Notes under the pieces: model-generated | Database searches by the model: none | Seen by the model: the letters and a program-made list of their open reading frames with translations, nothing else | Told to the model about the DNA's origin: nothing | Shown here: piece by piece, positions 1-35,310 of the stretch | Layout: each line of letters opens with the position of its first letter | Numbering within the stretch: position 1 is the first letter of the stretch | Made by a program: the position numbers and the translations under genes | Origin: Actinomycetota bacterium | Lineage (GTDB): Bacteria > Actinomycetota > Geothermincolia > Geothermincolales > RBG-13-55-18 | NCBI GenBank assembly: GCA_014360645.1 | Contig: JACIXD010000001.1 | Location: 237,647 to 301,646 of the forward strand | Length of the DNA: 64,000 nucleotides | Direction: 5' to 3'

Positions 1-674
1 TCGAAGGCGATGGGGCCACCTTTTCGTTCCCAATCCACCCCCACCAGCAGCAACCTTATGGGACCGGGCCTGAGTGCCCGTACGGCATCGGCGTAGGGTG
101 GGTCTTCATCTATGTTCGCCCCGAAGGGGACCACGAAGACCCGCAAGGGGTCGGCCCCATAGTCCTCGATGGCAGAAGCAGCCGTCCAATGGGCTGGGAA
201 TATGCAGGCCGCGGCCCTGGAGATAGCCGCCCTCTCGATCCAGTGGCCCTGCCGCAGGGATGTCCGCATGAGGTCACGGTAGAAATCGTAATATTCGACC
301 ATGAGGGCGAAGGTGGCGTCGCTCTCATAAACCACGGGTATATCTGTCTCCAAAAGGGCTATCTCGGTTGAGGCCTCGGGCGCGAAGATTATATCATACT
401 CTCCAGCGGCCAGTTTCTTGTTGAAGGCCTGCGCGTATGACCTGGCGAGGCAGAGCGTATGAAGGTAGTCGTAGTTCCTGTGCAACAACCTCCTCGTAAA
501 GGCTCGGATTGCCTTGCCGGCATGCACGATAGGGGCGGAGACCGGCCCTAGATAATCCACCTCTCCCACGTTGTTCTCCAGCGCCTTACCCATATAGTGG
601 TAAACACCAGAGGAGTAGGTCTTGTCCCCTGGGTCACCCGCCGAGATGAACGCTATGCGTATTCTCTTCTCCAT
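1..674 (-). CDS. glycosyltransferase family 1 (GT4-like), partial; C-terminus lies outside the window
   Basis: Manual minus-strand translation from the ATG at 674 gives MEKRIRIAFISAGDPGDKTYSSGVYHYMGKALEN...LLLVGVDWERKGGPIAF, which resembles the N-terminal donor-binding domain of GT1 proteins. This ORF is not in the ORF track because it runs off the window edge. Confidence 0.6.
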   Translation of the reverse strand, partial: MEKRIRIAFISAGDPGDKTYSSGVYHYMGKALENNVGEVDYLGPVSAPIVHAGKAIRAFTRRLLHRNYDYLHTLCLARSYAQAFNKKLAAGEYDIIFAPEASTEIALLETDIPVVYESDATFALMVEYYDFYRDLMRTSLRQGHWIERAAISRAAACIFPAHWTAASAIEDYGADPLRVFVVPFGANIDEDPPYADAVRALRPGPIRLLLVGVDWERKGGPIAF

Positions 675-793
675 GGCGAATCCAGCCCCTCCTACCCGCC
701 GGCGAACTGCCTGGATCGCGCTTTCACGAGCACCTTAAGAGCAGGATCAATAAAGCGCGTCTCGAAAAGGCGCGCCAAGCCCCGAGCCCATCC

Positions 794-1876
794 CTATGCC
801 AGGAACTGGCGGTATATCTCGACATGCGCGGCCGCCGCCTTCTCCCAACCGAATTCCCTCGCTCTCCCGAGGCCGTCGCGGCGGACCTTTTCCCGCAACT
901 CGTGGTCCTCGAGCAAGGCGATCGCCTTATGGTAAATATCATCCACGTCGCGGGGGTCGCAATGCAACACCGAGCCGCCCGTCAACTCCAGGGACTGTGG
1001 TATGTCGGAGGCGACCACAGGACAGCCGCAGGCCATGGCCTCGATAACGTGGATGCCGCTCCCGCCCTCGTAAAGACTGGGCGCGAAGAGCAGCTCCGCA
1101 TTGGCGTAGAGTCGCGGCAGCTCGCTTTCCGGGACGTGGCCGCAAAAAACCACGCGGTCACGAAGATGCAGCCTCTCTATGGCGCGCAAGGAGCGCGCGC
1201 GGTCGGACCGTGATCCGGCAACTCCCACCTTGAGCAGGAAGATGTCGTGGTTACGGGAGATGCGCTTGAACGCCTCCAGGACGGAAGGGAAGTTCTTCCT
1301 CGGGATCTCCGAGCCCACGAAGAGCGCGTAACGGCTGTCTCCCCTCAGCCCGTAGCTCTCCAGGAAGGTCCGGTCCCGATATCCAGGCCTGTACAGCGCG
1401 TGATCCACGCCGCAATATACGACGCTCATCCTGTCCTCGGGATAACCGAGCTTTGATGCTATCTCGTTCAGCATATGCCTCGAGACAGTTATCACGTGGT
1501 CGGCGCGCAGGATACCGGGGACGTTGAAGGCCCGGAACGGATAGCTCTTGAGATCGGTGCGGCCCGCTTCCAGCGGGTGCAGATCGTGGAGGGTGAGCAG
1601 AACGGGCGCTTTTCTTCGCAGCAGGGGTACGAGGTGCGCGTTCGCATGGTCGTGGATGTGGAACAGACTACCGCTCAGTCCCGCTGCGTGTATGCTGTAC
1701 ATGAGATAGCGGTTGATGATCCCCTTCGGGAAAGGTATGGCGAGCCCCGCTATCTCGTCTATCGAGACATGTATGTCTGGAGCCAGGCCCGCCATCTCGC
1801 GGTGCAGGCACTCCACCCATTTGCTCATGCTTGGACCCCGCAGCCTGCGCACACCGTGGATCCATACCACATTCAT
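794..1876 (-). CDS. glycosyltransferase family 1
   Basis: 360 aa with GT1/GT4 C-terminal signature (EGGSGIHVIEAMACGCPVVASD). It overlaps the downstream gene by 4 bp. Confidence 0.8.
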   Translation of the reverse strand: MNVVWIHGVRRLRGPSMSKWVECLHREMAGLAPDIHVSIDEIAGLAIPFPKGIINRYLMYSIHAAGLSGSLFHIHDHANAHLVPLLRRKAPVLLTLHDLHPLEAGRTDLKSYPFRAFNVPGILRADHVITVSRHMLNEIASKLGYPEDRMSVVYCGVDHALYRPGYRDRTFLESYGLRGDSRYALFVGSEIPRKNFPSVLEAFKRISRNHDIFLLKVGVAGSRSDRARSLRAIERLHLRDRVVFCGHVPESELPRLYANAELLFAPSLYEGGSGIHVIEAMACGCPVVASDIPQSLELTGGSVLHCDPRDVDDIYHKAIALLEDHELREKVRRDGLGRAREFGWEKAAAAHVEIYRQFLA

Positions 1877-3696
1877 TGCTCACCTGCCTGACGAACCCCT
1901 CGCACCGCCGTGTCCAATTCCATCCGCACGAGGATAAGCCGGTATTCCTCCGACACCTTCTCGCGGGGCGCTGTGATATTGGAGAGCGCGACCCTCCAGT
2001 TCATGGCGCTCCAGGTATGATAGTTGCCGGCCGAGGTAAAATCGCAGGTTGGCGGGATATACTCAAGTCGTACGTCCATCTCGTGATCGATCTCCAAATT
2101 GTTCACGATCACCGTATCGTCGAATATCATCTCGCCCAATCTGTACTGGGAGCGGAAGGTCCTGGCGTTGGTAATAAGATAAAACGTCCCGGTAGTGCCG
2201 ATGTCCTTCAGGCTCACAGGTTTCCAAGGGGTTATCTCGATGATGTCAAGATCATAGGCGAAATAGAGCGGGGCTCCGAGGCCGTAACCACCAAGAGCAT
2301 AGCGGTCCACCAGGACTTTCTCCCCGCGCGAAGCCACCGACGCTATCTCCGCCACTCGCGAAGAAACCCCACGGTATTCCTGGTGGAGAAGCAGGGGATG
2401 GGAAACGCTAACCAGCAGCGCCAGGTACGCTGCCGTCACCCAAAAGGACGCCCCCTTGAGGATCTTGAACGCGGTATAGGAAAAGGCGATGAGAGCCAGG
2501 GGCAGAAGGACGGTCATGAAGCGCCGGAAAAACCAGGGTAGATCGAAAGAGATGCTCGGCCTGAGGAGAAAATAGGCGAAGGGGATAGCCATAAAAGCTA
2601 GGAAAAGCGCAAAAACACGTGTTGTCCCTTGGGACAGGAGAAGGAAGAAAAAGGGGATTATGAAGAGCAGGGCGGGCAGGAAGCCGAACTTTATCATCAC
2701 CATGATGCTGTACTTTGTCTGGTTGGAGTAGATGGCGTTCCTCTCTATATCGGAGACCCGTCCCGAGCCCAGGCCCACGCCGAGGCTGGTCTTTGTGACC
2801 CTCTCTATGCCGTAGGTCCTGTCCATCAAGGTATAAGCGAAAAAGAAAAACGAGACCAGGGCCAGGGTGACGAGGATGAGCACCACCGGCTTGATGGTCC
2901 AGCCATGCCAACGAGCCCGCGAATAGATAAAGAGCCATGCCAGTGTGCCCACCGCCAGAACCAGCAGCCCCTCGATGCGTATGAAGGCAGCCAGGGGGAG
3001 AGTGAGAAGAAAAAGGACGAGGTCGCTTTTGAAGGTGGCGCTCTCTTTGAGGCAACGATGCAGGAAATATAATGAGTTCCAGAAAAGGAAGAGAAAAAGC
3101 ACCTCATTTGCCGTGCGGCGCGCGTACCAGAGGAAGGGGTAGGAGAGAGAGATGAGGGCCACGGCGAATATGCCCGCCCGGGAATCCTCTGAGAGCTCCG
3201 TGGTCAGCAAGAACATCAGCAGGAGAGCGATGGCGAAGGGTATGGCGTTACAGAGCCGAAGGCCGCTGTACCCCATCGTTCCGTAGAGCAGGGCGTTCCA
3301 GGCCGTATTTAGAAAAAGCCTGATATCCCAACCGCGGTGGCCGGGAGGCGGCAAACGGCCGTGTCTTGCGAGGTATATCGCCTGGTTGGAGTAAATGCCC
3401 TCGTCGCGCGTACCGTTGAGGGCGTCATGAAAAAAAAAGACGTTCAGCAAGGTGACGGCGATGATAACAGCGAGGGCGGTGACGAGGATGGCGGCCTCTC
3501 TGCGAGAGCGGGGGCTTCGAGGGCAGAGCGTTCTTTTGCTCAAGAAGTGCCACGCCGGGATGGTGGCCAGTGTTCCGATGGCCAGCACCGCCCACGCGTT
3601 AAAGACTTTCAGGAGCGCGGCGGCCCAGGCCGTCCAAAGGAGGAGCAAGATATACAGCATGACAAAGCGCAGAAGATGACCCAGACGCATCAACAC
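1873..3696 (-). CDS. polytopic membrane glycosyltransferase, GT-C-like (ArnT/PMT/YfhO-type), with a C-terminal extracytoplasmic domain
   Basis: 607 aa with about 12-14 hydrophobic helices in the first ~430 aa followed by a soluble ~170-aa tail. It sits in a glycosyltransferase cluster alongside a GtrB-like GT2. Confidence 0.5.
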   Translation of the reverse strand: MLMRLGHLLRFVMLYILLLLWTAWAAALLKVFNAWAVLAIGTLATIPAWHFLSKRTLCPRSPRSRREAAILVTALAVIIAVTLLNVFFFHDALNGTRDEGIYSNQAIYLARHGRLPPPGHRGWDIRLFLNTAWNALLYGTMGYSGLRLCNAIPFAIALLLMFLLTTELSEDSRAGIFAVALISLSYPFLWYARRTANEVLFLFLFWNSLYFLHRCLKESATFKSDLVLFLLTLPLAAFIRIEGLLVLAVGTLAWLFIYSRARWHGWTIKPVVLILVTLALVSFFFFAYTLMDRTYGIERVTKTSLGVGLGSGRVSDIERNAIYSNQTKYSIMVMIKFGFLPALLFIIPFFFLLLSQGTTRVFALFLAFMAIPFAYFLLRPSISFDLPWFFRRFMTVLLPLALIAFSYTAFKILKGASFWVTAAYLALLVSVSHPLLLHQEYRGVSSRVAEIASVASRGEKVLVDRYALGGYGLGAPLYFAYDLDIIEITPWKPVSLKDIGTTGTFYLITNARTFRSQYRLGEMIFDDTVIVNNLEIDHEMDVRLEYIPPTCDFTSAGNYHTWSAMNWRVALSNITAPREKVSEEYRLILVRMELDTAVRGVRQAGEQ

Positions 3697-3701
3697 CCCC
3701 G

Positions 3702-5243
3702 CTATTCCAGTTTTATCTTGAGGGAGGTCAGCAGGATGTCCTCCTCGCCGATCTTCTCCAGGACGATCTTGACCTTCTCCCCTGGCAGGGGAACGCCTTT
3801 CATGTGGATGGTCCGTTTGCTGGTGAACGTTTCGCCGTCACGTGCAGGTGATTCATAATCCCTTGCGAGTACAGTGGAGAAAGGCTGGGCGGCGTTTTCG
3901 TTCCAGGGCTTAAGGCGCATGAAGCCGGGGTCGAAGGCCAGATCGGGATCAAAGGAGAATCCGCCTCCCAGAAACTCCACTTTGAGGCTTCCGGGGTTGG
4001 TGATATCCAGCCTCTTTCTTCCTTCCCCGAGGATAACCGCTCCCTTCTGCATGGGCGCGCCGGGCCCTCTGTTCTCGAAAAAGAGCAAGGGGGTGCCGTC
4101 GACCTGTATCGATCTGGGGACGATGGGATGCCACGTCTCAGCCGACAGCACGCCCGCCGGACCGTTCAGGAACAGAGTAGCCGAGGTGGTTGCCGGCACC
4201 GTGGGCTCGGGTCCGGTCTCCAGCGGGTCGAAGAGGAAGAGGGTGTTCCTGGCGAGGTATTTCACGGCATCGGTGCGTAAGGAGGTAAGGACGAAGTCGT
4301 CGCCCCAGGTAAGGGGCGAGATATCGAGCGTATACGAACCGCTCTCGCAGTCTTCCAGGTCTATCGATACGATCTGGTCCTCACCGGCCTCCATGGCATC
4401 ATCGGTGAGGTTTCCGTCGTCGGGGATCATGGCCTCATAATATGTCCTTCCCTTTCTCCTCAGGCGTATCAGCACGTCGTCGCCGCCCATATACCGGTTC
4501 AGATCTTTTTTGTGGACTTCCAAATGCAGCCTACCGGTGCTCACCACGAGCTCAATGGTATGTGCCCCCCGCAAAGGCATCCCGAGCGTTTCCACATTAC
4601 CGGTAGCATCAGGGCCGCATCCCCTTGCGAGAACCTCGTCGGGCCTGATCCCCGCCAGCGCGGCGTCTTCCTCCAGGTCCTCTGTCCGCGCCAGGAATTC
4701 GCCAATACTCGAAAAGCGCTTTGTTCGTTGATAGAGGCTCAGGCCGTCTTCGTGCATGACCTCCCAACCCCCCTTTTCTATCTCCGAGAGGAAGAGAGGA
4801 AGGGAATGATAGGGCTCGGCGAACCTGCTCCCTATGTGCATCCATAGCTGCTGCGGCGTTCCAAGGTATTCCGCCTCGATCTTGAGCGTTTCAGGCGTGA
4901 CGCCCTGAACGTCCAGGATAAGCTCCGTGTATCTCCTGGCCAGAGAAAGGCCGCTAACGACTTTACCGGTTTCGCCATCGAAGGAGACGACATCGACGTA
5001 CTCGGGCATAGACTTTGCTCCACCCGGGCTTTCATATTGATCGCCAAGACGGATCTCATAATTCACATTGAAATCCTTGCGGAACAGATAATCCCCAAGT
5101 ATGAAATATCCGGCGATCAATAAGATGATGGTAAGGGCGAGGACAAGCCTCCCCGTCTTGCTGAAAACGCGACGTTCCGTGAAAGCGTCCACAAGCCTCT
5201 TCAATCCCGGGTTTTTTATATTACCTGGTTGCCATATTATCAC
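3702..5243 (-). CDS. hypothetical membrane-anchored protein (N-terminal TM helix, large extracytoplasmic domain)
   Basis: 513 aa with a single N-terminal TM (LVLALTIILLIAGYFILG) and no motif I recognise. It is co-oriented with, and immediately upstream of, the GT-C gene. Confidence 0.55.
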   Translation of the reverse strand: MIIWQPGNIKNPGLKRLVDAFTERRVFSKTGRLVLALTIILLIAGYFILGDYLFRKDFNVNYEIRLGDQYESPGGAKSMPEYVDVVSFDGETGKVVSGLSLARRYTELILDVQGVTPETLKIEAEYLGTPQQLWMHIGSRFAEPYHSLPLFLSEIEKGGWEVMHEDGLSLYQRTKRFSSIGEFLARTEDLEEDAALAGIRPDEVLARGCGPDATGNVETLGMPLRGAHTIELVVSTGRLHLEVHKKDLNRYMGGDDVLIRLRRKGRTYYEAMIPDDGNLTDDAMEAGEDQIVSIDLEDCESGSYTLDISPLTWGDDFVLTSLRTDAVKYLARNTLFLFDPLETGPEPTVPATTSATLFLNGPAGVLSAETWHPIVPRSIQVDGTPLLFFENRGPGAPMQKGAVILGEGRKRLDITNPGSLKVEFLGGGFSFDPDLAFDPGFMRLKPWNENAAQPFSTVLARDYESPARDGETFTSKRTIHMKGVPLPGEKVKIVLEKIGEEDILLTSLKIKLE

Positions 5244-5462
5244 ATAGAAAGAAAGGCGGTGGGTGCGAGACGTCTCGGTGGTTGCTCTGCTCCGAGGAGT
5301 GCGTGCGCCAAAGCCCTCAGGACATAAAGCTCGGCGCGATGATGCCTGCGGCGCTGCAGTCGCGGCTCCGACGTCCTTTGGTGCCTGCGTCCCGGGCGAG
5401 GCCCTTATCTAGGGCCTGACCACAACCAATAATCTTTGAAAGCACCCCCGAGGGTTTAGAAT

Positions 5463-6575
5463 ATGAACATGGGATCGCTGGTGATGACCTCCTCATTTGA
5501 CGTGTTTCCTCCCCACACAGGGGGAGAGAGGCGCATCTATCAGATCGCCAGGGAGATGGCCGGTCGCGGGCGCGTCATTTTCGTCTACCCGAGGGAGAAA
5601 ACCGTTCCGGCTGAGGATATCCCGGGTATGGAGCTGGTTCCATACCGTATCAGGTGTCGATATCAGAAGCTGTTCAGTGTCGGGATGTTGCACAAGACGA
5701 TAAGGCTGTGCAGCAGGGAGAAGGCGGACCTGTTCTACGTGCATACTATCTGGGGGGGGCTGCAGGCGGTTTTGCTGCGGGCGTTGACCGGGGTCCCTTT
5801 TGTGCTGGACGAACAGAACGTGGAATACCTGAGGTTCCGCGACACGGGAAACCGCCTGTGGCCGATAATGAGAATATATGAAAAGGCGGTGACTGGATTT
5901 GCGGGGCTCGTGGTGTGCGTGTCCGAGAGGGACAAGGAGGCGTTTGTCGAACTGGGCGTCCCGAGGGAACGCCTGTATGTGGCGACAAACGGGGTTGACA
6001 CCTCCGTTTTCCGACCGGACGAGGATGCCCGAAGGAGGGTACGCGGTCAACTGGGCTTGGGAAACGACCCCCTGGTTCTCTTTTTTGGGGCCCTGGATTA
6101 TCCCCCCTCACTGGAAGCGCTTGCAGCGCTGAGGGATCATATCGTGCCCAGGGTAAGGGAAGCGGAACCAGGAGCGCGATTTATCGTGGCAGGGCGCAAC
6201 CCGCCGGCGAGAGCATTTTACGATGGAATGGAATTCGTGGGTTTCGTCGAAAGAATACAGGATTACATCAATGCAAGCGACGTGGTGGTGTGCCCCATAA
6301 CCAGCGGTGGCGGTACGAGGACAAAGATTCTGGAGGCAATCGCTTGCGGAAAAAGGGTGGTGAGTACCACCAAGGGAGCCGAGGGCCTTGAGCTCGATCT
6401 GGTAGGAGAAGGTGTTATCATGGCGGACGACTGGGACGATTTCTCCGATAAGGTGATAAATGCCGTCCGGATGACGGGAATCCCCGTCGATTTGCCGGAG
6501 CGCTTTTATGAGGAGTATTCCTGGAGGGGCATCGTCGAGGGGCTTTCGGCGGCCCTCGAAGGCGTCCGACCTTAG
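5463..6575 (+). CDS. glycosyltransferase family 1
   Basis: 370 aa with a GT4-type C-terminal domain (VCPITSGGGTRTKILEAIACGKRVVST). The start may instead be the ATG at 5484. Confidence 0.8.
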   Translation: MNMGSLVMTSSFDVFPPHTGGERRIYQIAREMAGRGRVIFVYPREKTVPAEDIPGMELVPYRIRCRYQKLFSVGMLHKTIRLCSREKADLFYVHTIWGGLQAVLLRALTGVPFVLDEQNVEYLRFRDTGNRLWPIMRIYEKAVTGFAGLVVCVSERDKEAFVELGVPRERLYVATNGVDTSVFRPDEDARRRVRGQLGLGNDPLVLFFGALDYPPSLEALAALRDHIVPRVREAEPGARFIVAGRNPPARAFYDGMEFVGFVERIQDYINASDVVVCPITSGGGTRTKILEAIACGKRVVSTTKGAEGLELDLVGEGVIMADDWDDFSDKVINAVRMTGIPVDLPERFYEEYSWRGIVEGLSAALEGVRP

Positions 6576-7468
6576 GCCCGACGGCAGGTCGATGCGGCCG
6601 CTTTCTCCCTCCACCAGTGCCAGACGAAACCCGTTAGTTGTGCGAGATACTGCAAAAGGAGAAGGGCCATGGACAGGAGGCCTCTTTTCGCGCCCTGTTG
6701 GCGGATGGCCCTCGATGAGGCCTTGAGCCTGTCTGATACCAGGTCGCGTGATATTCCGCGATAGGCGTGGTATTCATAATAGGATTTTCCTCTGCGGACG
6801 TGCCAGAGGATGAAATCCATGATCCTCTTTCTCGGTTCATGGAGGACGGTGGCATCCTCAACGTACAATATCTCATGGCCGCGTTTTATTAACCTGGATG
6901 CGAGCTCGACGTCCTCGCAGCCGTGGGAGAGCTTTTCGTCGAAGCAACCGAGTTCCAGGAGGAGGTTTCTGTCGATAGCGAAGTTCCCGGAGCAAAGGTG
7001 ATCGGTGATATCTCGCTCGTCTACATTCCACAGGCTCCGAAAACCGACTGACCCGCCGCCGGGATAGCCAAGGGACGATATGGCATCGGCCACCAGGCCC
7101 TGGCCTGTCGGCACCATGTTCCCTGACGTGGTGACCAAGACCTTTTTCTCGATTATGGGCTGGGTCAACTTCTCCAGCCATTGATCGTCAAGGGGGAGTT
7201 CATCATCGTCTATGAATGCGACGACCTGTCCTCTGGCAAGGCTCACGCCTTTATTGCGGTAATAAGGGATGCCCTTGGCTGGTGTTTCCCGAATCACCCT
7301 GATGATGTCGCTTTCGGGCAGCCTACTGGATATATCGGCCTGGGGGACAAGTATGATTTCAAAAGGATAATCCGATCGTTGTCGCAGAAGGGCCTCGACG
7401 AGGGGGTAGAGGCTTTCACGTCCCATGGTAGGGATGATCACGGAGATCGCGATATCACTCGGTCTCAA
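6572..7468 (-). CDS. glycosyltransferase family 2
   Basis: 298 aa with a GT2 N-terminus (ISVIIPTMGRESL...VAFIDDDELP, DxD). It is convergent with, and overlaps by 4 bp, the preceding GT1. Confidence 0.75.
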   Translation of the reverse strand: MRPSDIAISVIIPTMGRESLYPLVEALLRQRSDYPFEIILVPQADISSRLPESDIIRVIRETPAKGIPYYRNKGVSLARGQVVAFIDDDELPLDDQWLEKLTQPIIEKKVLVTTSGNMVPTGQGLVADAISSLGYPGGGSVGFRSLWNVDERDITDHLCSGNFAIDRNLLLELGCFDEKLSHGCEDVELASRLIKRGHEILYVEDATVLHEPRKRIMDFILWHVRRGKSYYEYHAYRGISRDLVSDRLKASSRAIRQQGAKRGLLSMALLLLQYLAQLTGFVWHWWREKAAASTCRRA

Positions 7469-8128
7469 GAGCTCGCTGCCTTCTGTTATACGTGATGTCG
7501 GCGCCGCAAAAAAGACGGCGCCACCCCTTCTGGGCGCCGCGTGATCCCTGCAAGCCTAAGTACTTGAAGTCATCAAAACTTTCGTTGCCTGAGCCTGTCC
7601 TTCCGCAGAATTCGGGGCGCATGACGTCCTTAGACTGCACGCCATATTCACAGCCGAAAACCCCATTCCCTCTGTGCCCTCCATGCATCCTCGGCGGTTG
7701 CCTCAGCATTCTCCATCCAGGACGAAACATCTTCGCGTAGAAACCATCCAGATTAGTGAGCATGGTAAGATGTTAGAGCTTATGCGATTCGGAGTAAAGC
7801 TGGTATCTGAGCAGCAAAAGTAATGCGCAGGCGAGGACCGCCATTAGCGAGGCTGCGTAGCCCTGGCGACATGTTAGAATGTATACACCGGAGATTGTGT
7901 TGGTTGGCGTATGATGCCGGCGGCTGTCGGCAGCAAGACGATGCGTGATGACCTGCTTGATGGAACGGCGGGCCGCGAAAAGGTGAAGGGGGTTGCAGCG
8001 GTCTTTATGATCAGGCAACAAACCTCAGGGTATAGCGTCTGGCTTCCAGATGGCATCATCCTGATCTGCCGGAAATCTGCATATTCCTCGCGAGGGATCG
8101 GAAGCGATAAAAACGGGAGTAGTCTAGC

Positions 8129-18591: not shown

Positions 18592-19308
18592 ATGATAATA
18601 TATATACTTAACGAGCTGCTCTTCCCGGTGAGATGCGCCGGATGCGGGAGGTGCCTGCGCAGGCCGATATGTCCCGAGTGCAACGCGGCCATGCCCATGG
18701 TAAGAGGGCACACCTGCTCGCGGTGCGGCAGGCCCACCATGTATGCGGTGAACGGCTGCCTGCAGTGCGGCACCGGCCTGAGATCGGTCGACCACACAGT
18801 GGCCATGGCGGTGTACGAGGAGCCGCTGCGTTCCGTCATCCACAAACTGAAATATGGCAACGGCTGGAGGCTTGCGGCTCCGCTGGGCGCCATGGCGGCG
18901 GCACGCCTCGCCCCGCACCTGGCCACGAGCCGGCCCGCCGTCACCTTCGTTCCCATGCACCGACGTAGGAGGATGGAGCGCGGTTACGACCATGCCGAGA
19001 AGCTGGCTGCAGGCGTGGCGCGCGCCCTGGGTCTGGAGGTGGTACGCCTGCTCGAGCGCTCCCGTCTTTCCCCCTCACAGGCCTCCCTGGGGTATGCGGA
19101 GAGGCGGAAGAATGTAAAGGGGGCGTTCAGGCTGAAGGCGGATGGCCAGCTGCCGGAGGAGGTGGTGGTGGTGGACGACGTGCTCACCACGGGCTCCACT
19201 CTGGCGGAGTGCGCGGACACGCTCAAGGCGGGAGGGGCACGAAGGGTGGTGGCGTGTGTGCTCGCCCGGGACCTCCTCGAGGTGGGATCGGTCCCGGAGG
19301 CGGTGTGA
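18592..19308 (+). CDS. comF: ComF family protein (ComFC-like phosphoribosyltransferase-domain protein)
   Basis: N-terminal Zn-finger CAGCGRC...CPEC and a C-terminal PRTase motif VVVVDDVLTTGSTL. The start is uncertain (ATG 18592, possibly leaderless, or GTG 18628); the ORF-track start at 18574 lies within the promoter. Confidence 0.7.
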   Translation: MIIYILNELLFPVRCAGCGRCLRRPICPECNAAMPMVRGHTCSRCGRPTMYAVNGCLQCGTGLRSVDHTVAMAVYEEPLRSVIHKLKYGNGWRLAAPLGAMAAARLAPHLATSRPAVTFVPMHRRRRMERGYDHAEKLAAGVARALGLEVVRLLERSRLSPSQASLGYAERRKNVKGAFRLKADGQLPEEVVVVDDVLTTGSTLAECADTLKAGGARRVVACVLARDLLEVGSVPEAV

Positions 19309-19435
19309 CCACGACCTATCCCTCGCCCGTCGAAAAGCTCGAATGACGGGGATGGCAGAAATGGCCTCGCCGTATTTACCGTTAAAAAGCGGGCCCGCGG
19401 ATGACGATAATAATAGCGGTTGAAGGAGGCGAGAT

Positions 19436-19687
19436 ATGCACACACAGGCAAGACGGGATGACGCCGAGCGCCATATCGCCGCCGGGGTCCATGCGCAGCG
19501 GGCAGAGCCCGCGTCGCCGTATCCGGCGCAGGTGGAGGTGTTGAGGGGCCTGCTGGAACCTCCCGAGGTGCGCGAGCATCTCGTCGCCTCCCTAAAGAGC
19601 GCCATCGACCACAACCGTTACCACATACCGGGGGAGCTGGTCGCCCAGAGCATGATGGAATGTATGGTTCCTTGCCTGCGAAACTGA
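19436..19687 (+). CDS. FlgM-family anti-sigma-28 factor-like protein
   Basis: 83 aa. The C-terminus (REHLVASLKSAIDHNRYHIPGELVAQSMME) matches the conserved FlgM C-terminal helix pattern (compare B. subtilis ...[26 protein letters not shown]). It follows comF as in Bacillus. Confidence 0.45.
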   Translation: MHTQARRDDAERHIAAGVHAQRAEPASPYPAQVEVLRGLLEPPEVREHLVASLKSAIDHNRYHIPGELVAQSMMECMVPCLRN

Positions 19688-19706
19688 TGGACGCTTACGA
19701 GCCGTA

Positions 19707-19736
19707 GCCCCCCGGCGCCTGCGCCGGGGGGCTTTC
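19707..19736 (+). terminator. intrinsic terminator after the flgM-like gene
   Basis: Perfect GC-rich inverted repeat gccccccggcgc / gcgccggggggc (12 bp) followed by TTTC. Confidence 0.45.
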
Positions 19737-20119
19737 GATCGCCGGGATGCTGGTCGCGAGTGCGGGCGGGCCATCCTGCGATGGACGCCGGGTGGCGGCG
19801 GCCGGAAGTACGGCGCCGGAGCGGAGACATCGAGCTCGGCGCGCAAGGCGGTTCTACGGGTCCACCATCCCCGGGCCATGGACCGCCCGCGGCGCCCGTC
19901 GGCGGCGAAGCCGGGATCCCACGAGGAGAGGGAGCCGTCCCCGCTGCGGAACCGCCCGCGGCGCACGCCGGGGACGGCCCTTAAGCCGCCCGGCCCGATC
20001 CCGCGGTAAGCGCTGCCGCCGCGGCGCACGCCGGGAGCGACCGCATGCGAGCCACGCTATATGTGAAGCCCATTTACCGTCCGCGGTCCCCGCCGGCAGC
20101 GGCCGCTTCCACCGTGGCG

Positions 20120-20125
20120 TATAAT
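20120..20125 (+). promoter_or_regulatory. TATAAT -10 hexamer in the noncoding gap upstream of hpf
   Basis: A perfect TATAAT (cgtataatgg) with no good -35. It would give a ~420-nt leader or ncRNA ahead of hpf. Confidence 0.25.
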
Positions 20126-20554
20126 GGAACCGGAAGGCTTCGGCCCGGGTCTGTGGTTGAAAGTCGATGCCAGCCGCAGGCGAAACGACCCACGTAAGCC
20201 AACTCTTGGTTGGTGAGCATGGTGCGGCTTAGGGGTAAGTCCTGCCCGGCACAAAGCCGGAGAAGCGTAGTAGTGGAGGGCCAGGGTTCTTTCCGGAGAA
20301 GAGCCCGCCCTCTGCGAGCCGTTCAGCAGGCGAGTGTGGGGGCAAAGACCAGGTCAGCCGGGTTCCGAGGCCTTCCTCGTGCCCGCATGCATGTTGGCAT
20401 CGGACCGATGGTATGCTAGGCTATTGCGAGTCGATGCACGGAAGCCGGGTCGCGGTCCGGGTGTGGACCGGCCCCATGAACAGGTCTCGATGATGGCCCA
20501 TACCGACACCAGCCTGGTATGGGTTTTTTCGCTGAGAGGAAGGGAGCGAGGAAC

Positions 20555-21094
20555 ATGCAGATGATCGTCAAGGGGAAGAACCTGGAGGTCACCGACGCCC
20601 TGCGCGCGTACGCGCAGGAGAAGGTGGGCAAGGTGGAGAAATACCTCGATCGCATCACCAAGACCGAGATCGAGATGAGCGTGGAGAAGAACCCCAAGAT
20701 CCCCGACAACCAGGTGGTGGAGGTCACCATCTTCTCCAGCGGCCCCGTGATCAGGGCAAAGGAGTCCGCCACCGACATGTACCAGGCCATCGACCTGGTG
20801 GCGGGCAAGCTCGAGCGCCAGGCGCGCAAGGTGAAGAAGAAGCTCATAGACCGCTCCCACCACGCGAAGAACCCCCTGAAGGAGATGGCGGTGGAAGAGG
20901 AGGAAGAGCCCGAGCCGGTGATCGTGAAGACCAAGAGCTTCCCGCTCAAGCCCATGACCCCCGAGGAGGCCTGCCTCCAGATGGACCTGGTGGGCCACGA
21001 TTTCTTCGTCTTCGTCAACGCCGAGACGGAGGAGACCAACGTGGTTTATCGAAGAAAGGATGGGAACTACGGCCTGATCGAGCCGGGAGGTTGA
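20555..21094 (+). CDS. hpf: ribosome hibernation promoting factor, long form
   Basis: MQMIVKGKNLEVTDALRAYAQEKVGKVEKYL is a classic HPF/RaiA N-terminus, and the long-form C-terminal domain is present. Preceded by a [16 protein letters not shown]. Confidence 0.85.
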   Translation: MQMIVKGKNLEVTDALRAYAQEKVGKVEKYLDRITKTEIEMSVEKNPKIPDNQVVEVTIFSSGPVIRAKESATDMYQAIDLVAGKLERQARKVKKKLIDRSHHAKNPLKEMAVEEEEEPEPVIVKTKSFPLKPMTPEEACLQMDLVGHDFFVFVNAETEETNVVYRRKDGNYGLIEPGG

Positions 21095-21196
21095 TATGCG
21101 CAAGCTCCTGGACATGGCGCGCCAGGTGCTGGATTACGTCATCAGGCGGGGCGCCACCATGCGCCCTTGAGAGACGGGACGGGTGAGGTCGCTCTC

Positions 21197-22807
21197 ATGG
21201 ACATAAGGGTCAAGGCGCTGGCGTCGGCTGGCCTATCGGGCTGCCTCGCGGTCATCCTCTACCTCGCCCTGGCGAGGGACATGCCCGTGTTCTGGTTCTC
21301 GGTGGTGCTGCTCGGAGCCCTCATGGTGGTGTGCGAGACCATGGGGGAGAAGATGTCCTCGGGAGGGCGTTCCACCTACGGCATCATGGTCATCTTCGCC
21401 GCGGTGGCCTCCCTGAACACGCCCTCGGCCATGATCGTCGCCCTGTGCGGGGCCTTTCACCTGCGCATGTTCGAGCGCAGGCAGGACCCCTGGGAGCTGG
21501 CGGCCACCGGCTCCATCTATTCCCTCTGCGCCTGGGCCTCCTCGGCCGTATATCATGCCCTGGGCGGCGCCTCGCGTGCCTTCACCCTCTCCGGAGCCAT
21601 GCGCTCCCTGCTCCCGCTCCTGGTGGCGGCGGGGGTCTTCTGGGCACTGAACGCCCTGGCGGTGGCGGCGGTGCTGCGCTGGCGCGACGGCGTCGAGCCC
21701 GCTCGCTTCCTGCTCAACGACGCTCTGCGGCTGCTCCCCAACCATCTCCTCTACGCCCTCGTGGGCCTGGGCATGGGGGTCATCTACGCCCAGAACGCCT
21801 TTCACGTCGCCCTGGACCTGGAGAACAGGCCTCTACTGGACGCGGCGGGAAACCAGGTCATCCTGGGCTCGGCGGCGGAGGCCCTGCGAGGCCTCTTCGC
21901 GCTCCTGGCCTTCACGGCCATCCTCGGGGTGGCCTGGTACTTCAGCGGCAAGAACATCGCGCTGCTGGAATCCTACGACCGCAGCATGGAGGCCCTGGTC
22001 ACCCACATGGAGAGGCGCGAGCCCTACCTGGACGGCCACGCGGTGCGGGTCGCGGAGCACGCGGCGCGCATCGCCTCTCACATGCGCCTGCCCGTCTATG
22101 AGGTGAACCGACTGCGCCACGCCGCCCTCCTCCACGACCTGGGGAGGCCGGTCATACCGCGCGGGATACTGCTGCAAAGGGCCCCGCTGAGCGGCGAGGA
22201 GTTCGAGCGCGTCAGGGCGCATCCCCTGGAGGGCGCCGCCAGGCTGGAGGAGGTCTCCTATCTCTCGGACATGGCCGAGGCGGTAAGGCACCACCACGAA
22301 TACTACGACGGCGGCGGCTACGTGGACGGCCTGAAGGGAGAGACCATACCCCTTTCCGCGCGCATACTGGCGGTGGCCGACGCCTACGACGCCATGGTCC
22401 ATCCCCGGCCCTGGAGGGATGCCAAGAGCCACGAGGCAGCCCTGGCCGAGCTGCGCGAGAACGCCGGGCGCCAGTTCGACCCCGAGATAGTGGAGCATTT
22501 CATCGCCTCCCTGCAGGCGGAGGAGGGCCGGGCAGTGAGAAGAGGTGAGGAGCAGGCGGCGGTCGCGGAGAAGGGAGGGGCGGCGGAGGCCGCTCCCGGG
22601 GAGCCCGCGGTCGTGCCCGGCCGGGAACGCTCGCGGAGGAGGGCCAGGCGGCGCGAGGAGATCCTGCGGGAGCGCAGGGAAGCCCGGGAGCGCCTGGAGC
22701 GGGAGGCCATGCTCCGGCTGCAGGAAGAGAGAGGCGAGGCGGCTCCGCGTGAAGGGGCCGCGGGCGAGGATGAGCCCGGAGACGCTCCGGGAGGTGAGGA
22801 GCGATGA
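21197..22807 (+). CDS. membrane-anchored HD-GYP domain protein (7TM + HD-GYP phosphohydrolase, probable c-di-GMP phosphodiesterase)
   Basis: N-terminal ~7 TM helices, then an HD domain (HAALLHDLG) and a GYP-like motif (HHHEYYDGGGYVDGLKGETIPLSARILAVADAYDAM). The C-terminal tail is charged, low-complexity and R/E-rich. Confidence 0.65.
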   Translation: MDIRVKALASAGLSGCLAVILYLALARDMPVFWFSVVLLGALMVVCETMGEKMSSGGRSTYGIMVIFAAVASLNTPSAMIVALCGAFHLRMFERRQDPWELAATGSIYSLCAWASSAVYHALGGASRAFTLSGAMRSLLPLLVAAGVFWALNALAVAAVLRWRDGVEPARFLLNDALRLLPNHLLYALVGLGMGVIYAQNAFHVALDLENRPLLDAAGNQVILGSAAEALRGLFALLAFTAILGVAWYFSGKNIALLESYDRSMEALVTHMERREPYLDGHAVRVAEHAARIASHMRLPVYEVNRLRHAALLHDLGRPVIPRGILLQRAPLSGEEFERVRAHPLEGAARLEEVSYLSDMAEAVRHHHEYYDGGGYVDGLKGETIPLSARILAVADAYDAMVHPRPWRDAKSHEAALAELRENAGRQFDPEIVEHFIASLQAEEGRAVRRGEEQAAVAEKGGAAEAAPGEPAVVPGRERSRRRARRREEILRERREARERLEREAMLRLQEERGEAAPREGAAGEDEPGDAPGGEER

Positions 22808-24165
22808 ACGAGAGGAGCCTTAAGGCCCTGCGCTTTCTCTCCGCCCTGCTCTTCCTGGCGGTGATCGTGGCGTGCGCTCCCTTCGTGAAGTGGGGGGACA
22901 TCGACCCGGCGCGGACCTTCGGGCTCGCCGCCGTGCTGGCCTTTTTCGAGGCCTGGAGGATCCAGTTCCCCTGGGGGAGGCCGCTGCGCCTGGGCATGGC
23001 GGCCATCCTGTGCATCATCGCCATAAGGCCGCTCCCGGAGGCGGTGTTCATATTCCTCCTGGGCAGCATGGTGGGGCGGGCCTTCTCCCGCCTGCAGCGC
23101 GAGGGAGAGGGCGACTTCCTGCACATCGTCCAGCGCACCTACATCGTGGCCTTTGCGGGGCTGGTCTATCGCCTGGTGGCCTTCGCGGGATGGGAGATGA
23201 GCTGGAATCCCTACCCCGCCTATTTCGGCAACTTGCCCGACGGCAGCATCTATCTCACCTATTTCAACCCCGTGGTACTTCACCGCGCCCTGGTCTTCCC
23301 CGCGGCCTTCCTGGCCATGGCGCTGGTCTTCTATCTCGGGGAGGTGATCACCTCCTCGGTGGAGGCGGGGATCCTGCTGGTGGGCAACTGGCGCGTGATC
23401 CTGCCCCAGCACATGCGCCAGACCTTCCCCGCCTACCTCGCCATCACCGGCGCGGGAGCGCTGACCGCCCTCTATTTTCCACGCCTGCCGTGGTTCAACT
23501 TCCTCGTCTTCCTGGTGCCGCTGCTCCTGGTGCGCATGGAGTCCAACCGCGACAAGGAGCTGGACGAGCGCTACTTCCAGACCATGCGCATCATCGGAGA
23601 CGCCTTCGACCTGGCGCGCGGCATGCCGGGGCATTCGGGGAGGGTCAGCAACCTGGCGGCGGAGGTGGCGCGGGAGATGGGCGTCTCCGCCGAGGAGACG
23701 CGCAACATCCGCTACGCCGCCGCCCTGCACGACATCGGGCGCGTAGAGTTCGAGGGCGACGAGGAGGCGCAAGGGCATGCCGAGAGGGGAGCCGAGGTGC
23801 TGGAGGAGGTGCCGCGGCTGCGCCCCATCGCCCACATCGTGCGTCATTCCCATCCCTCCCCAGAGGAGGAAGGCGGGGCGTCGAGGATACCGGTGGGCGC
23901 GAAGATCATCGGGGCGGTGAGCGATTTCGACGTCCTCACCTACCATCCCGAGCGCAAGATGTCGCAGCGGGAGGCCCTGGAGGAGATGGGGCTCGAGCGG
24001 GGCAAACGCTATGATTCCATGGTCCTCCGCACCCTCACCCAGGTCCTGGAGGCCCAGGCGAGGGCGCGCCGGCGCCCGGAGCGTGAGATCAGACAGCGGG
24101 CCAAGGTGCTGGAGGAGGAGGAGCTCAAGGAAAGCCTGGAGGAGATCTTCCGCGAGGAAGAGTAG
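22804..24165 (+). CDS. membrane-anchored HD domain protein, degenerate HD-GYP paralog
   Basis: Same architecture as the upstream gene, with a 4-bp overlap. The HD motif is retained (AALHDIGR) but the GYP motif is absent ([29 protein letters not shown]). Confidence 0.6.
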
Positions 24166-24620
24166 GAGGGCTCTTCGCCGGCCGGCGTTCCCCTGCCCGC
24201 GCCTCGGTCGTTACCCGCACCGTCTTTCCCGCGGGCGGCACCACCGCCCGGCGGGAAGAACCCCGAGAACTCCTCTCCCGTCAAAAGGGTCGCCTGCGCC
24301 GCGGGGAGGGCGGGAGGAAGGCGGAGTCGGTTCCCTGCGTCGCCGGCATCGCATCACCACCCCGCCGCGGAGGATGGGCGCGGCGCTCGCCGGGCGAGCG
24401 CCCGCAAGGTCCCGCATGTGGCTCGCGGCGGGAGAGGGCCGGGGGCACGATCCCGTGCCCCGTTTCCGGCGGCAGTAGGAGACGGTGCGCCGCGAGGGTG
24501 ACACGGCGTCCCGCGATGTTGAAAGGCACGCCGTATCCGTGGCATGGTAAGGATGCGGTGAAAGATGGTTCTCGCGCGCGGTCGAGGCGCGGCGGAGGAG
24601 TGAGGACAAAGGAGCGAGCG

Positions 24621-27239
<2,619 letters not shown>

Positions 27240-34189: not shown

Positions 34190-34535
34190 TGGTGGAGGCG
34201 GGGGGAGTCGAACCCCCGTCCAGAAATCCGGCCGGGTGGGCTCTACGAGCGTATCCGCCGCGAGGTTTTTCGCCACCGGGTCGCCCGGCGGAGGGCTAGC
34301 CGGCGGCTATCCCGTCAGGGTTTTCCCTCGGCCCTTACGGGAGTGGGGCCTCGGTGAGCCCGCTGCATGACGCCCCTTCCCCGGTCGCGGGCCTCCCGGG
34401 GAGGGACGGGCCGCTTAAGCGGCCAGGGCCAACTCGCTGTCGGCGTCTGTTGGTTTTCCCGCTTGTTGACGAGGCTCGGGTCCCCGGCTCGCTCCCGCGC
34501 CGGCCGCCGATCCCTGTCGAAGCCGTTTCGCCCCC
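34190..34535 (-). ncRNA. ssrA: tmRNA (transfer-messenger RNA, SsrA)
   Basis: The minus strand reads 5'-GGGGGCGAAACGGCUUCGACAGGG...GGACGGGGGUUCGACUCCCCCCGCCUCCACCA-3'. The acceptor stem carries a G3:U wobble (Ala identity), the T-arm is canonical and CCA is encoded. The internal tag ORF is ...GGA AAA CCA ACA GAC GCC GAC AGC GAG UUG GCC CUG GCC GCU UAA, giving (A)GKPTDADSELALAA. smpB is adjacent. Confidence 0.85.
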
Positions 34536-34830: not shown

Positions 34831-35310
34831 TCATTCCCGGCCGCGACCGCCCCGGCCGGCCTCCTTGAGGGTTCGCTCGAGGTCCCGGCGCGCCTCCCGC
34901 TCCATGATGTCCCGGCGGCGGTCGGCCTTGGCCTTGCCCCGCGCCAGCCCCAGCTCCACCTTGATCCTGCCCCTCTCGTTGAGGTAAAGCCTCAAGGGGA
35001 TGAGGGTGTACCCTTTCTCGTTCACCTTGCCCTCCAGCCTGCGCAGCTCTTCTCGATGCATCAACACCTTGCGCGGCCGCAGGGGCTCGTGGTTGAAGGC
35101 ACCGCCGTGGCTGTAGGGGGCGACGTGCATGTTCTCCAGGAAGAGCTCCCCGCCGCTAATCCTGGCGAAGCTGTCGCGCAGGTTGGCCCTCCCCTCGCGA
35201 ATGGACTTCACCTCCGAGCCCAGGAGGGACAGGCCGCCCTCGAACCTCTCCTCTATGTGGTAATCGTGCCTGGCCTTGCGGTTCTCGGCCAGGGTCCTCA
35301 CGCTTCCCAT
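34831..35310 (-). CDS. smpB: SsrA-binding protein SmpB
   Basis: 159 aa with SmpB motifs (ENRKARHDYHIEERFEGGLSLLGSEVKSIREG...LHREELRRL). Confidence 0.85.
   Translation of the reverse strand: MGSVRTLAENRKARHDYHIEERFEGGLSLLGSEVKSIREGRANLRDSFARISGGELFLENMHVAPYSHGGAFNHEPLRPRKVLMHREELRRLEGKVNEKGYTLIPLRLYLNERGRIKVELGLARGKAKADRRRDIMEREARRDLERTLKEAGRGGRGRE

Follow-up and report, generated by a model that had tools for sequence, protein, structure and literature searches.

The 64,000-nucleotide stretch of actinobacterial DNA analysed here (positions 237,647 to 301,646 of contig JACIXD010000001.1, assembly GCA_014360645.1; "the window" below) harbours two overlapping genes, referred to as P1 and P2, that form an hdgA/hdgB-type pair of MASE9-HD-GYP membrane proteins and not a new system. 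P1 is probably an active phosphodiesterase, and P2 a translationally coupled pseudoenzyme that would take part in the same membrane complex as a regulator. The type pair was described in Streptomyces venezuelae, where hdgA (vnz24090) encodes a "6TM-HD-GYP" protein (TM, transmembrane helix) with conserved motifs and the adjacent hdgB (vnz24095) a "6TM-degenerate HD-GYP" protein without GYP, both being located in the membrane fraction and probably encoded by one operon (PMC6205966). No role is known for this pair, even in Streptomyces. For the window itself, the practical result is a modest one, the correct annotation of two genes.

Structure and coupling of the gene pair

A preliminary description of the region, made from the sequence alone, reported two adjacent genes overlapping by 4 bp; both open reading frames (ORFs) are found there and share an ATGA at 22804-22807 (Table 1). 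P1 was taken to begin at position 21197 because GGTGAGG precedes this ATG and because the protein so read fits the conserved N-terminus of its homologues (M-D-x-R-x-K-A-L); an alternative TTG at 21167 is less likely. The Shine-Dalgarno (SD)-like sequence GGGAGGTGAGGAG at 22789-22801 lies 3-15 nucleotides (nt) upstream of the P2 start, and in nearly all related loci the same G-rich motif accompanies an overlap of 1, 4 or 11 nt. Since this motif is encoded in the last codons of P1, the protein ends in a conserved Gly-Gly-Glu. Both are real genes, with a G+C content at third codon positions (GC3) of 0.88 for P1 and 0.91 for P2, comparable to that of neighbouring genes, and with dozens of full-length homologues each. 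Both proteins have the HD-GYP fold, the Pfam HD_5 scores being 128.7 bits for P1 (E = 2.5e-37) and 54.2 bits for P2 (E = 1.9e-14), with a gathering cut-off of 27.2 bits; they align with each other over the HD region only (30% identity, E = 1e-12).

A probably active and a degenerate HD-GYP domain

Residue roles were taken from PmGH, as given by Galperin and Chou (bioRxiv 10.1101/2021.11.05.467447), and from alignments to solved structures. P1 has the full set of binuclear metal ligands, as H281, H313, D314, H342, H366, H367 and D395 are the equivalents of PmGH H189, H221, D222, H250, H276, H277 and D305. Its Y375 corresponds to PmGH Tyr285 and its R404xxR407 (R404-P-W-R407) to R314xxK317, and in 32 homologues the metal ligands, Y375 and the RxY[K/R] motif, with which RPWR agrees, are invariant or nearly so. 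The HD and GYP-like motifs attributed to the first protein in the preliminary description are indeed present, as LLHDLGR and HHHEYYDGGGYV. The latter reads HHEYYDGGGYV, with an invariant Tyr and a last residue that varies among V, I, L and P within the P1 family; the position of the KPG motif is occupied by QRA in P1 and by Q-x-G in the family. In PmGH, the KPG loop binds via main-chain atoms, and the position of E185, a ligand of the third metal, is linked to the further hydrolysis of pGpG (5'-phosphoguanylyl-guanosine) to GMP (bioRxiv 10.1101/2021.11.05.467447). The equivalent of E185 is Tyr277 in P1, which is, judging from its residues, of the binuclear type; because a Tyr stands for the Glu that holds the third metal, its main product is probably pGpG. 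P1 most likely hydrolyses cyclic diguanosine monophosphate (c-di-GMP).

The second protein had been noted for keeping HD while having lost GYP, and P2 does carry AALHDIGR together with a deletion of 5 residues at the GYP loop. Another 13 residues are deleted at the KPG loop, a difference from the HdgA/HdgB type. HHE is replaced by S-H-P, with "AEER" at this place in deep branches; Ser occupies the D305 position in P2, and Ser, Cys or Thr in its family; and no RxxK motif was found in the P2 alignments. The only invariant ligands that are kept are P2 H277 and H309-D310; the invariant D376 is the second, non-ligand Asp of ADxxDA. P2 lacks in this way the metal ligands, the HHE...GYP motif and the KPG and RxxK motifs of a class II c-di-GMP phosphodiesterase, and it is considered a pseudoenzyme because the substrate-binding and most of the metal-binding residues are lost. 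Scored residue by residue, P1 has the complete HD-GYP set and is not a generic HD protein, whereas P2 has lost most of that set and retains H...HD only; the "active plus degenerate" pair of the preliminary description is thereby supported.

Membrane domains

Seven or so membrane helices had been predicted at first for each protein. The multi-helix N-termini stand, the count does not: the AlphaFold models give the same succession of eight membrane helices in P1 and P2, two of them short, the last one continuing in both proteins into the linker of the HD domain. Only short loops are seen outside the membrane in both models, in agreement with the earlier remark that an extracytoplasmic sensor domain is lacking. 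This layout matches what has been published on MASE9, a domain for which eight membrane helices are predicted, two being short, and whose ligand is expected to bind inside the membrane (Galperin and Chou).

The assignment of P1 to MASE9 relies on Pfam matches of its homologues, 27 out of 32 of which match MASE9 (PF20972; best 9.8e-8) with the P1 of the window itself below threshold, and on the hhalign comparison of the P1 family with the N-termini of other MASE9-HD-GYP proteins (E = 4.4e-21). None of 32 P2 homologues matched Pfam MASE9; a weak match was obtained for a related degenerate partner (P0200), and the P2 family aligned with MASE9-type N-termini over 209 columns (E = 3.6e-6, probability 87%). 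The direct hhalign comparison of the P1 and P2 N-terminal domains was not significant (P = 0.08), and it is only through this third family that their homology is indicated. The six-helix core of the models superposes on solved S-components from energy-coupling factor (ECF) transporters; for both MASE9 membrane domains, an S-component fold is predicted. No ECF A or T gene was found among the annotated neighbours in the window.

Charged C-terminal tails

The highly charged C-terminal tails pointed out in the preliminary description occur in both proteins and, being conserved, are more than low-complexity sequence. The tail of P1 contains a conserved charged helix, RRREE-LRERREARERLEREA, in which R486, R493 and R497 are invariant and for which the predicted local distance difference test (pLDDT) score is 76-88; its conservation is 0.68, compared to 0.29 and 0.36 in the flanks. 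The tail of P2 also holds a conserved charged helix. An hhalign comparison of the two tails gave P = 0.096 over 6 columns, hence no support for a common origin, and they seem alike in composition only. The tails distinguish the pair of the class Geothermincolia from the shorter homologues (400-430 aa) found outside this class, in which they are missing; the Geothermincolia pair seems to have acquired them jointly.

Conservation, gene fusions and descent

The homologues of P1 and P2 belong to Candidatus Solincola and Candidatus Geothermincola, uncultured members of the class Geothermincolia (Actinomycetota), the closest species-level genome being that of Ca. Solincola daggyaiensis (P2 identity 91%). 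All Geothermincolia loci that extend far enough upstream, from about 22 species-level genomes, show a fixed order: hpf, a small ORF (sORF) of 24 codons, P1, P2 and secA. In every genome compared, the identity of P2 is at least that of P1, for example 91% vs 80%, 77% vs 65% or 57% vs 47%, which makes the dead partner the more constrained of the two. Invariant positions amount to 46/168 in the HD-GYP domain and 14/250 in the membrane domain of P1, and to 21/145 in the HD domain and 38/245 in the membrane domain of P2, including the charged residues E49, R59, R75, E79, R111, R161, E180, E187, R205 and R227. The constraint on P2 is concentrated in the membrane domain, the linker and the tail. Among the conserved residues located inside the membrane are E47, N74, N152 and Q199 in P1 and E49, R59, R75, E79, E180 and E187 in P2.

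Overlapping pairs of an active followed by a degenerate gene are also found in a Dermatophilaceae locus (L055), in a metagenome-assembled genome (MAG) of Actinomycetota (L040) and in two uncultured lineages of Actinomycetota (L084 and L085). In the latter two, the pair likewise lies between hpf and secA, in the company of an additional gene of 216 aa and a DUF5317 gene. When 1.84 billion representative sequences were searched with a profile of the P2 family, the nearest outside relatives were for the most part 400-430 aa long and lacked GYP; the ones that carried a name belonged to Actinomycetota. A search seeded with the degenerate Dermatophilaceae partner returned only Dermatophilaceae and Oryzihumus among the matches listed. 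Identity between the Geothermincolia pair and its Dermatophilaceae counterparts is 28-30%.

Natural fusions of 979 and 950 aa (P0201 and P0215; also in loci L086 and L087, at 5001-7940) combine an active half with a degenerate half, in this order. Their N-terminal half is 39-41% identical to the active Dermatophilaceae protein and contains GYP; their C-terminal half, where GYP is absent, is 45-47% identical to the degenerate one. Each fusion is represented by several sequence variants on many independent contigs, and downstream of the fused gene lies a UDP-glucose dehydrogenase-like gene, just as downstream of the split Dermatophilaceae pair, which occupies the corresponding locus. The fusions imply a cytoplasmic N-terminus of the membrane domain; as evidence of the Rosetta-stone type, they suggest that P1 and P2 may form a single complex.

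In a neighbour-joining tree, built from sequences only 20-25% identical and including no Streptomyces sequences, the P2 family grouped with the degenerate Dermatophilaceae family (bootstrap 96), and P1 fell inside the GYP-containing clade (bootstrap 100); a basal degenerate group did not join the clade of P2 and the degenerate Dermatophilaceae proteins. The degenerate partners score 76-85 bits on the profile of the P2 HD domain vs 30-48 bits on that of P1, and Ser at the D305 position is common to P2 and the partners in L084 and L085, the Dermatophilaceae partner having Asn. The tree, the profile scores and the shared Ser thus point to one old duplication at the origin of P1 and P2 rather than a recent one.

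Comparison with known systems

As in HdgA/HdgB according to their description (PMC6205966), two adjacent co-oriented genes encode a predicted active membrane HD-GYP protein with conserved motifs and then a membrane HD-GYP protein without GYP. Unlike the Streptomyces system, here compared by its description only, the Geothermincolia pair lies between hpf and secA. HdgA carries MASE9 and is listed as the only studied protein with this domain. P1 shares its two-domain architecture and its eight predicted helices, two of them short, with MASE9-HD-GYP proteins of the Thermotoga maritima TM1467 type, from which it differs by the additional tail and by a dedicated degenerate partner. Other inactive HD-GYP proteins (Bd1817, HnoD, ECA3548 and RpfG) occur in soluble form or in fusion with REC or PilZ domains, and none has an active paralogue as its fixed partner. 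Neither ECF S-components nor the 5TMR-LYT sensor kinases have detectable sequence similarity to the pair; the output of 5TMR-LYT proteins is a kinase, that of P1 and P2 an HD-GYP domain. The paper on the S-component fold of 5TMR-LYT kinases makes no mention of phosphodiesterases or MASE domains. What is new here is the depth of conservation, the fixed location between hpf and secA in basal Actinomycetota, the gene fusions and the S-component fold predicted for MASE9. Moreover, a pair of an active and a dead protein appears to be ancient and to have been kept with its translational coupling across deep actinobacterial lineages.

Proposed mechanism and alternative explanations

In the proposed model, which is considered the most likely one, a single long helix would connect the eight-helix MASE9 domain of P1 with its HD-GYP domain in the cytoplasm. 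P2, an ancient paralogue of P1 with the same architecture and now a pseudoenzyme, would be translated in step with P1 via the stop/start overlap, enter its membrane complex as a sensory or regulatory subunit and adjust its activity to a signal perceived inside the membrane. The "sensor and regulator duo" proposed in the preliminary description may be of this kind, a suggestion that draws support from the translational coupling, the strict co-occurrence and the natural gene fusions. Several observations weigh against this model. The link between P2 and HdgB comes from a distance tree whose sequences are highly divergent (20-25% identity) and in which long-branch attraction may have operated, and the likeness to S-components rests on predicted and not on solved structures. 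P1 has GYV and QRA in place of GYP and KPG, departures that we consider minor. Pfam searches of about 40 further genes of the window detected no GGDEF, EAL or PilZ domain. Finally, deletion of hdgA or hdgB caused no phenotype in Streptomyces, where both genes are poorly expressed (PMC6205966; PMC13232838).

It is conceivable, yet doubtful, that P1 acts as a stand-alone phosphodiesterase and P2 as a separate membrane receptor or scaffold, which would serve other partners via its linker and tail, so that adjacency would reflect tandem duplication only. P2 does have a strongly conserved membrane domain and tail of its own, the degenerate proteins HnoD and RpfG are known to act by protein contacts, and HdgB self-interacts in a two-hybrid assay (PMC13232838). 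However, the stop/start overlap with its internal SD motif is kept across the whole class, the two genes were never found apart in the loci examined, and both halves are naturally fused on many contigs, all of which argue for a common complex. As regards P2, a residual enzymatic function appears improbable: its reduced metal site (H277, H309 and D310, often with H323 and H348) would act on another phosphoester, e.g., a nucleotide alarmone, which would fit the location near hpf. HD-superfamily enzymes are diverse, and strong purifying selection acts on the P2 family, in which H...HD does not vary, but the fourth ligand position (D305) is Ser, Cys or Thr, the equivalents of H250 and H277 vary in deep branches (R, Q or Y; "AEER") and the HD domain is less constrained than the membrane domain.

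The substrate of P1 could also be another cyclic dinucleotide such as 3'3'-cyclic GMP-AMP (3'3'-cGAMP), or the lineage may not use c-di-GMP, which we regard as unlikely. The best sequence match of P1 in the PDB is the cGAMP-specific V-cGAP3 (2.1e-29), which has the same R-P-aromatic-R motif, and HD-GYP enzymes can hydrolyse cGAMP; nevertheless, RxY[K/R] is the motif of the c-di-GMP type, enzymes shifted to cGAMP having RxxQ or RxxN (bioRxiv 10.1101/2021.11.05.467447). Hydrolysis of c-di-GMP has been reported, as a personal communication, for HdgA, the closest studied relative in architecture (bioRxiv 10.1101/2021.11.05.467447). A tblastn search covering the window plus 258 kb from related loci detected no GGDEF gene, and the literature on Ca. 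Solincola and Geothermincolia contains no c-di-GMP data; still, little can be concluded from 64 kb when the genome measures about 2.8 Mb. An assignment to the 7TM-HD phosphodiesterases of cyclic diadenosine monophosphate (c-di-AMP), such as PgpH, is effectively refuted by the domain searches, in which the combination of 7TMR-HD or 7TMR-HDED membrane domains with a classical HD domain was not detected.

The model of an active enzyme regulated by a coupled pseudoenzyme can be extended to a more specific version, which is rather unlikely. P1 and P2 would then be an obligate enzyme/pseudoenzyme receptor whose S-component-fold domains bind a micronutrient-like ligand (vitamin, cofactor or metal) inside the membrane, with the more constrained domain of P2 as the main sensor; the bound ligand would switch c-di-GMP hydrolysis by P1, and the pair would be co-expressed with hpf and the sORF as a stationary-phase unit. 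If true, MASE9 would join the 5TMR-LYT kinases as a transporter-fold receptor, here in control of a second messenger. Taken together, the ancient coupled pair, the greater constraint on the dead partner, the fusions and the S-component-like membrane domains turn a pair with "no phenotype" into a testable model of a ligand-gated heteromeric phosphodiesterase, and they suggest ligands and growth conditions to try.

Genomic surroundings

Table 1. Features of the P1-P2 region, with positions in the window
Feature	Position	Strand	Remarks
hpf, long ribosome hibernation factor	20519..21094	+	Pfam Ribosomal_S30AE and S30AE_C; always directly upstream of the pair
Conserved 24-codon sORF (MRKLLDMARQVLDYVIRRGATMRP) between hpf and P1	21096..21170	+	Starts one base past the hpf stop
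P1: MASE9 membrane domain, HD-GYP domain and charged tail	21197..22807	+	536 aa; HdgA-like, predicted active
P1 membrane domain, residues 1-250	21197..21946	+	Eight helices of the MASE9 type; ECF S-component fold predicted
P1 HD-GYP catalytic domain, residues 273-440	22013..22516	+	46/168 positions invariant
P1 HD motif	22133-22138	+	Within LLHDLGR
P1 motif HHHEYYDGGGYV, residues 365-376	22289-22324	+	
P1 charged tail helix, residues 476-513, RERSRRRARRREEILRERREARERLEREAMLRLQEERG	22622..22735	+	Variable linkers on both sides
Coupling junction: SD-like GGGAGGTGAGGAG within the last P1 codons, then ATGA stop/start overlap	22789..22807	+	
P2: membrane domain (divergent, MASE9-like), HD-GYP-fold domain (degenerate) and charged tail	22804..24165	+	453 aa; HdgB-like, predicted pseudoenzyme
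P2 membrane domain, residues 1-245	22804..23538	+	Helix layout as in P1; 38 invariant positions
P2 degenerate HD domain, residues 271-415	23614..24048	+	HD at 23728-23733
P2 conserved tail	24049..24162	+	P425, R427, E428 and A433 invariant; mean conservation 0.74
secA	24498..27239	+	ORF and synteny; always directly downstream of the pair; real start probably near 24621

The genes around the pair are a classical Gram-positive housekeeping run, in the order comFC, flgM, raiA RNA, hpf, P1, P2, secA, prfB, a PHP-domain gene, transketolase, ftsE, ftsX, ctp, transfer-messenger RNA (tmRNA) and smpB. The sORF between hpf and P1 is kept at equal length in all 24 of the 24 Geothermincolia loci holding that stretch and ends in the consensus RRGA[ST][MF]R-hydrophobic-stop. 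Its substitutions are coding-like, being most frequent at codon position 3, then 1, then 2, with 1819 synonymous vs 2527 non-synonymous codon differences. It matches no Pfam family, and the related lineages L084 and L085 lack it; either a micro-protein that has escaped annotation or a leader peptide is conceivable.

A scan of positions 19300-24700 for promoters and terminators gave counts near the shuffled expectation, and neither the hpf-P1 interval nor the sequence past P2 contained a convincing terminator. Within or beside the pair, nothing was detected with Rfam except the raiA RNA motif at 20140-20368 on the + strand (RF03072; 177.6 bits, gathering 101.3), in its usual position upstream of hpf. 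The spacer between P2 and secA (24166-24620, + strand; about 455 nt) is very GC-rich and has neither an Rfam match nor a predicted terminator; beyond it, secA probably starts at about 24621 (MRNPLGKVL).

Between comFC and hpf, a small ORF (19436-19687, + strand) matches FlgM, an anti-sigma-28 factor (Pfam E = 4.8e-8), and flgM is called at the same position in another locus (L004). A tie of the pair to flagella was rejected, as Solincola species reported without flagellar genes (L015, L020 and L024) carry it.

Some irregularities concern the homologues and related loci. On one contig of a long-read MAG (L001/L022, 6171-8001), the P1 homologue is called as a MASE9 part of 262 aa and an HD part of 366 aa, either through a frameshift error or as a real split. 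A protein of 326 aa (P0193) with response-regulator and LuxR annotation, encoded on a contig of 1.2 kb, has a stretch 72% identical to P2, over 26% of the length of P2, and is possibly a chimeric assembly. In the two uncultured lineages with the pair between hpf and secA, the unannotated, conserved 216 aa gene precedes the pair, and the DUF5317 membrane protein gene follows it, at 6382-6984 in L084 and at 6219-6782 in L085.

Elsewhere in the window, the tmRNA (34190-34535, - strand, 139.5 bits) adjoins smpB (34831-35310, - strand), a usual pairing, and five tRNA genes lie between 41893 and 46037. Positions 1-7800 have a GC content of 0.56-0.60, compared to 0.65-0.70 in the remainder, as well as a lower GC3 in their ORFs, and may be acquired DNA.

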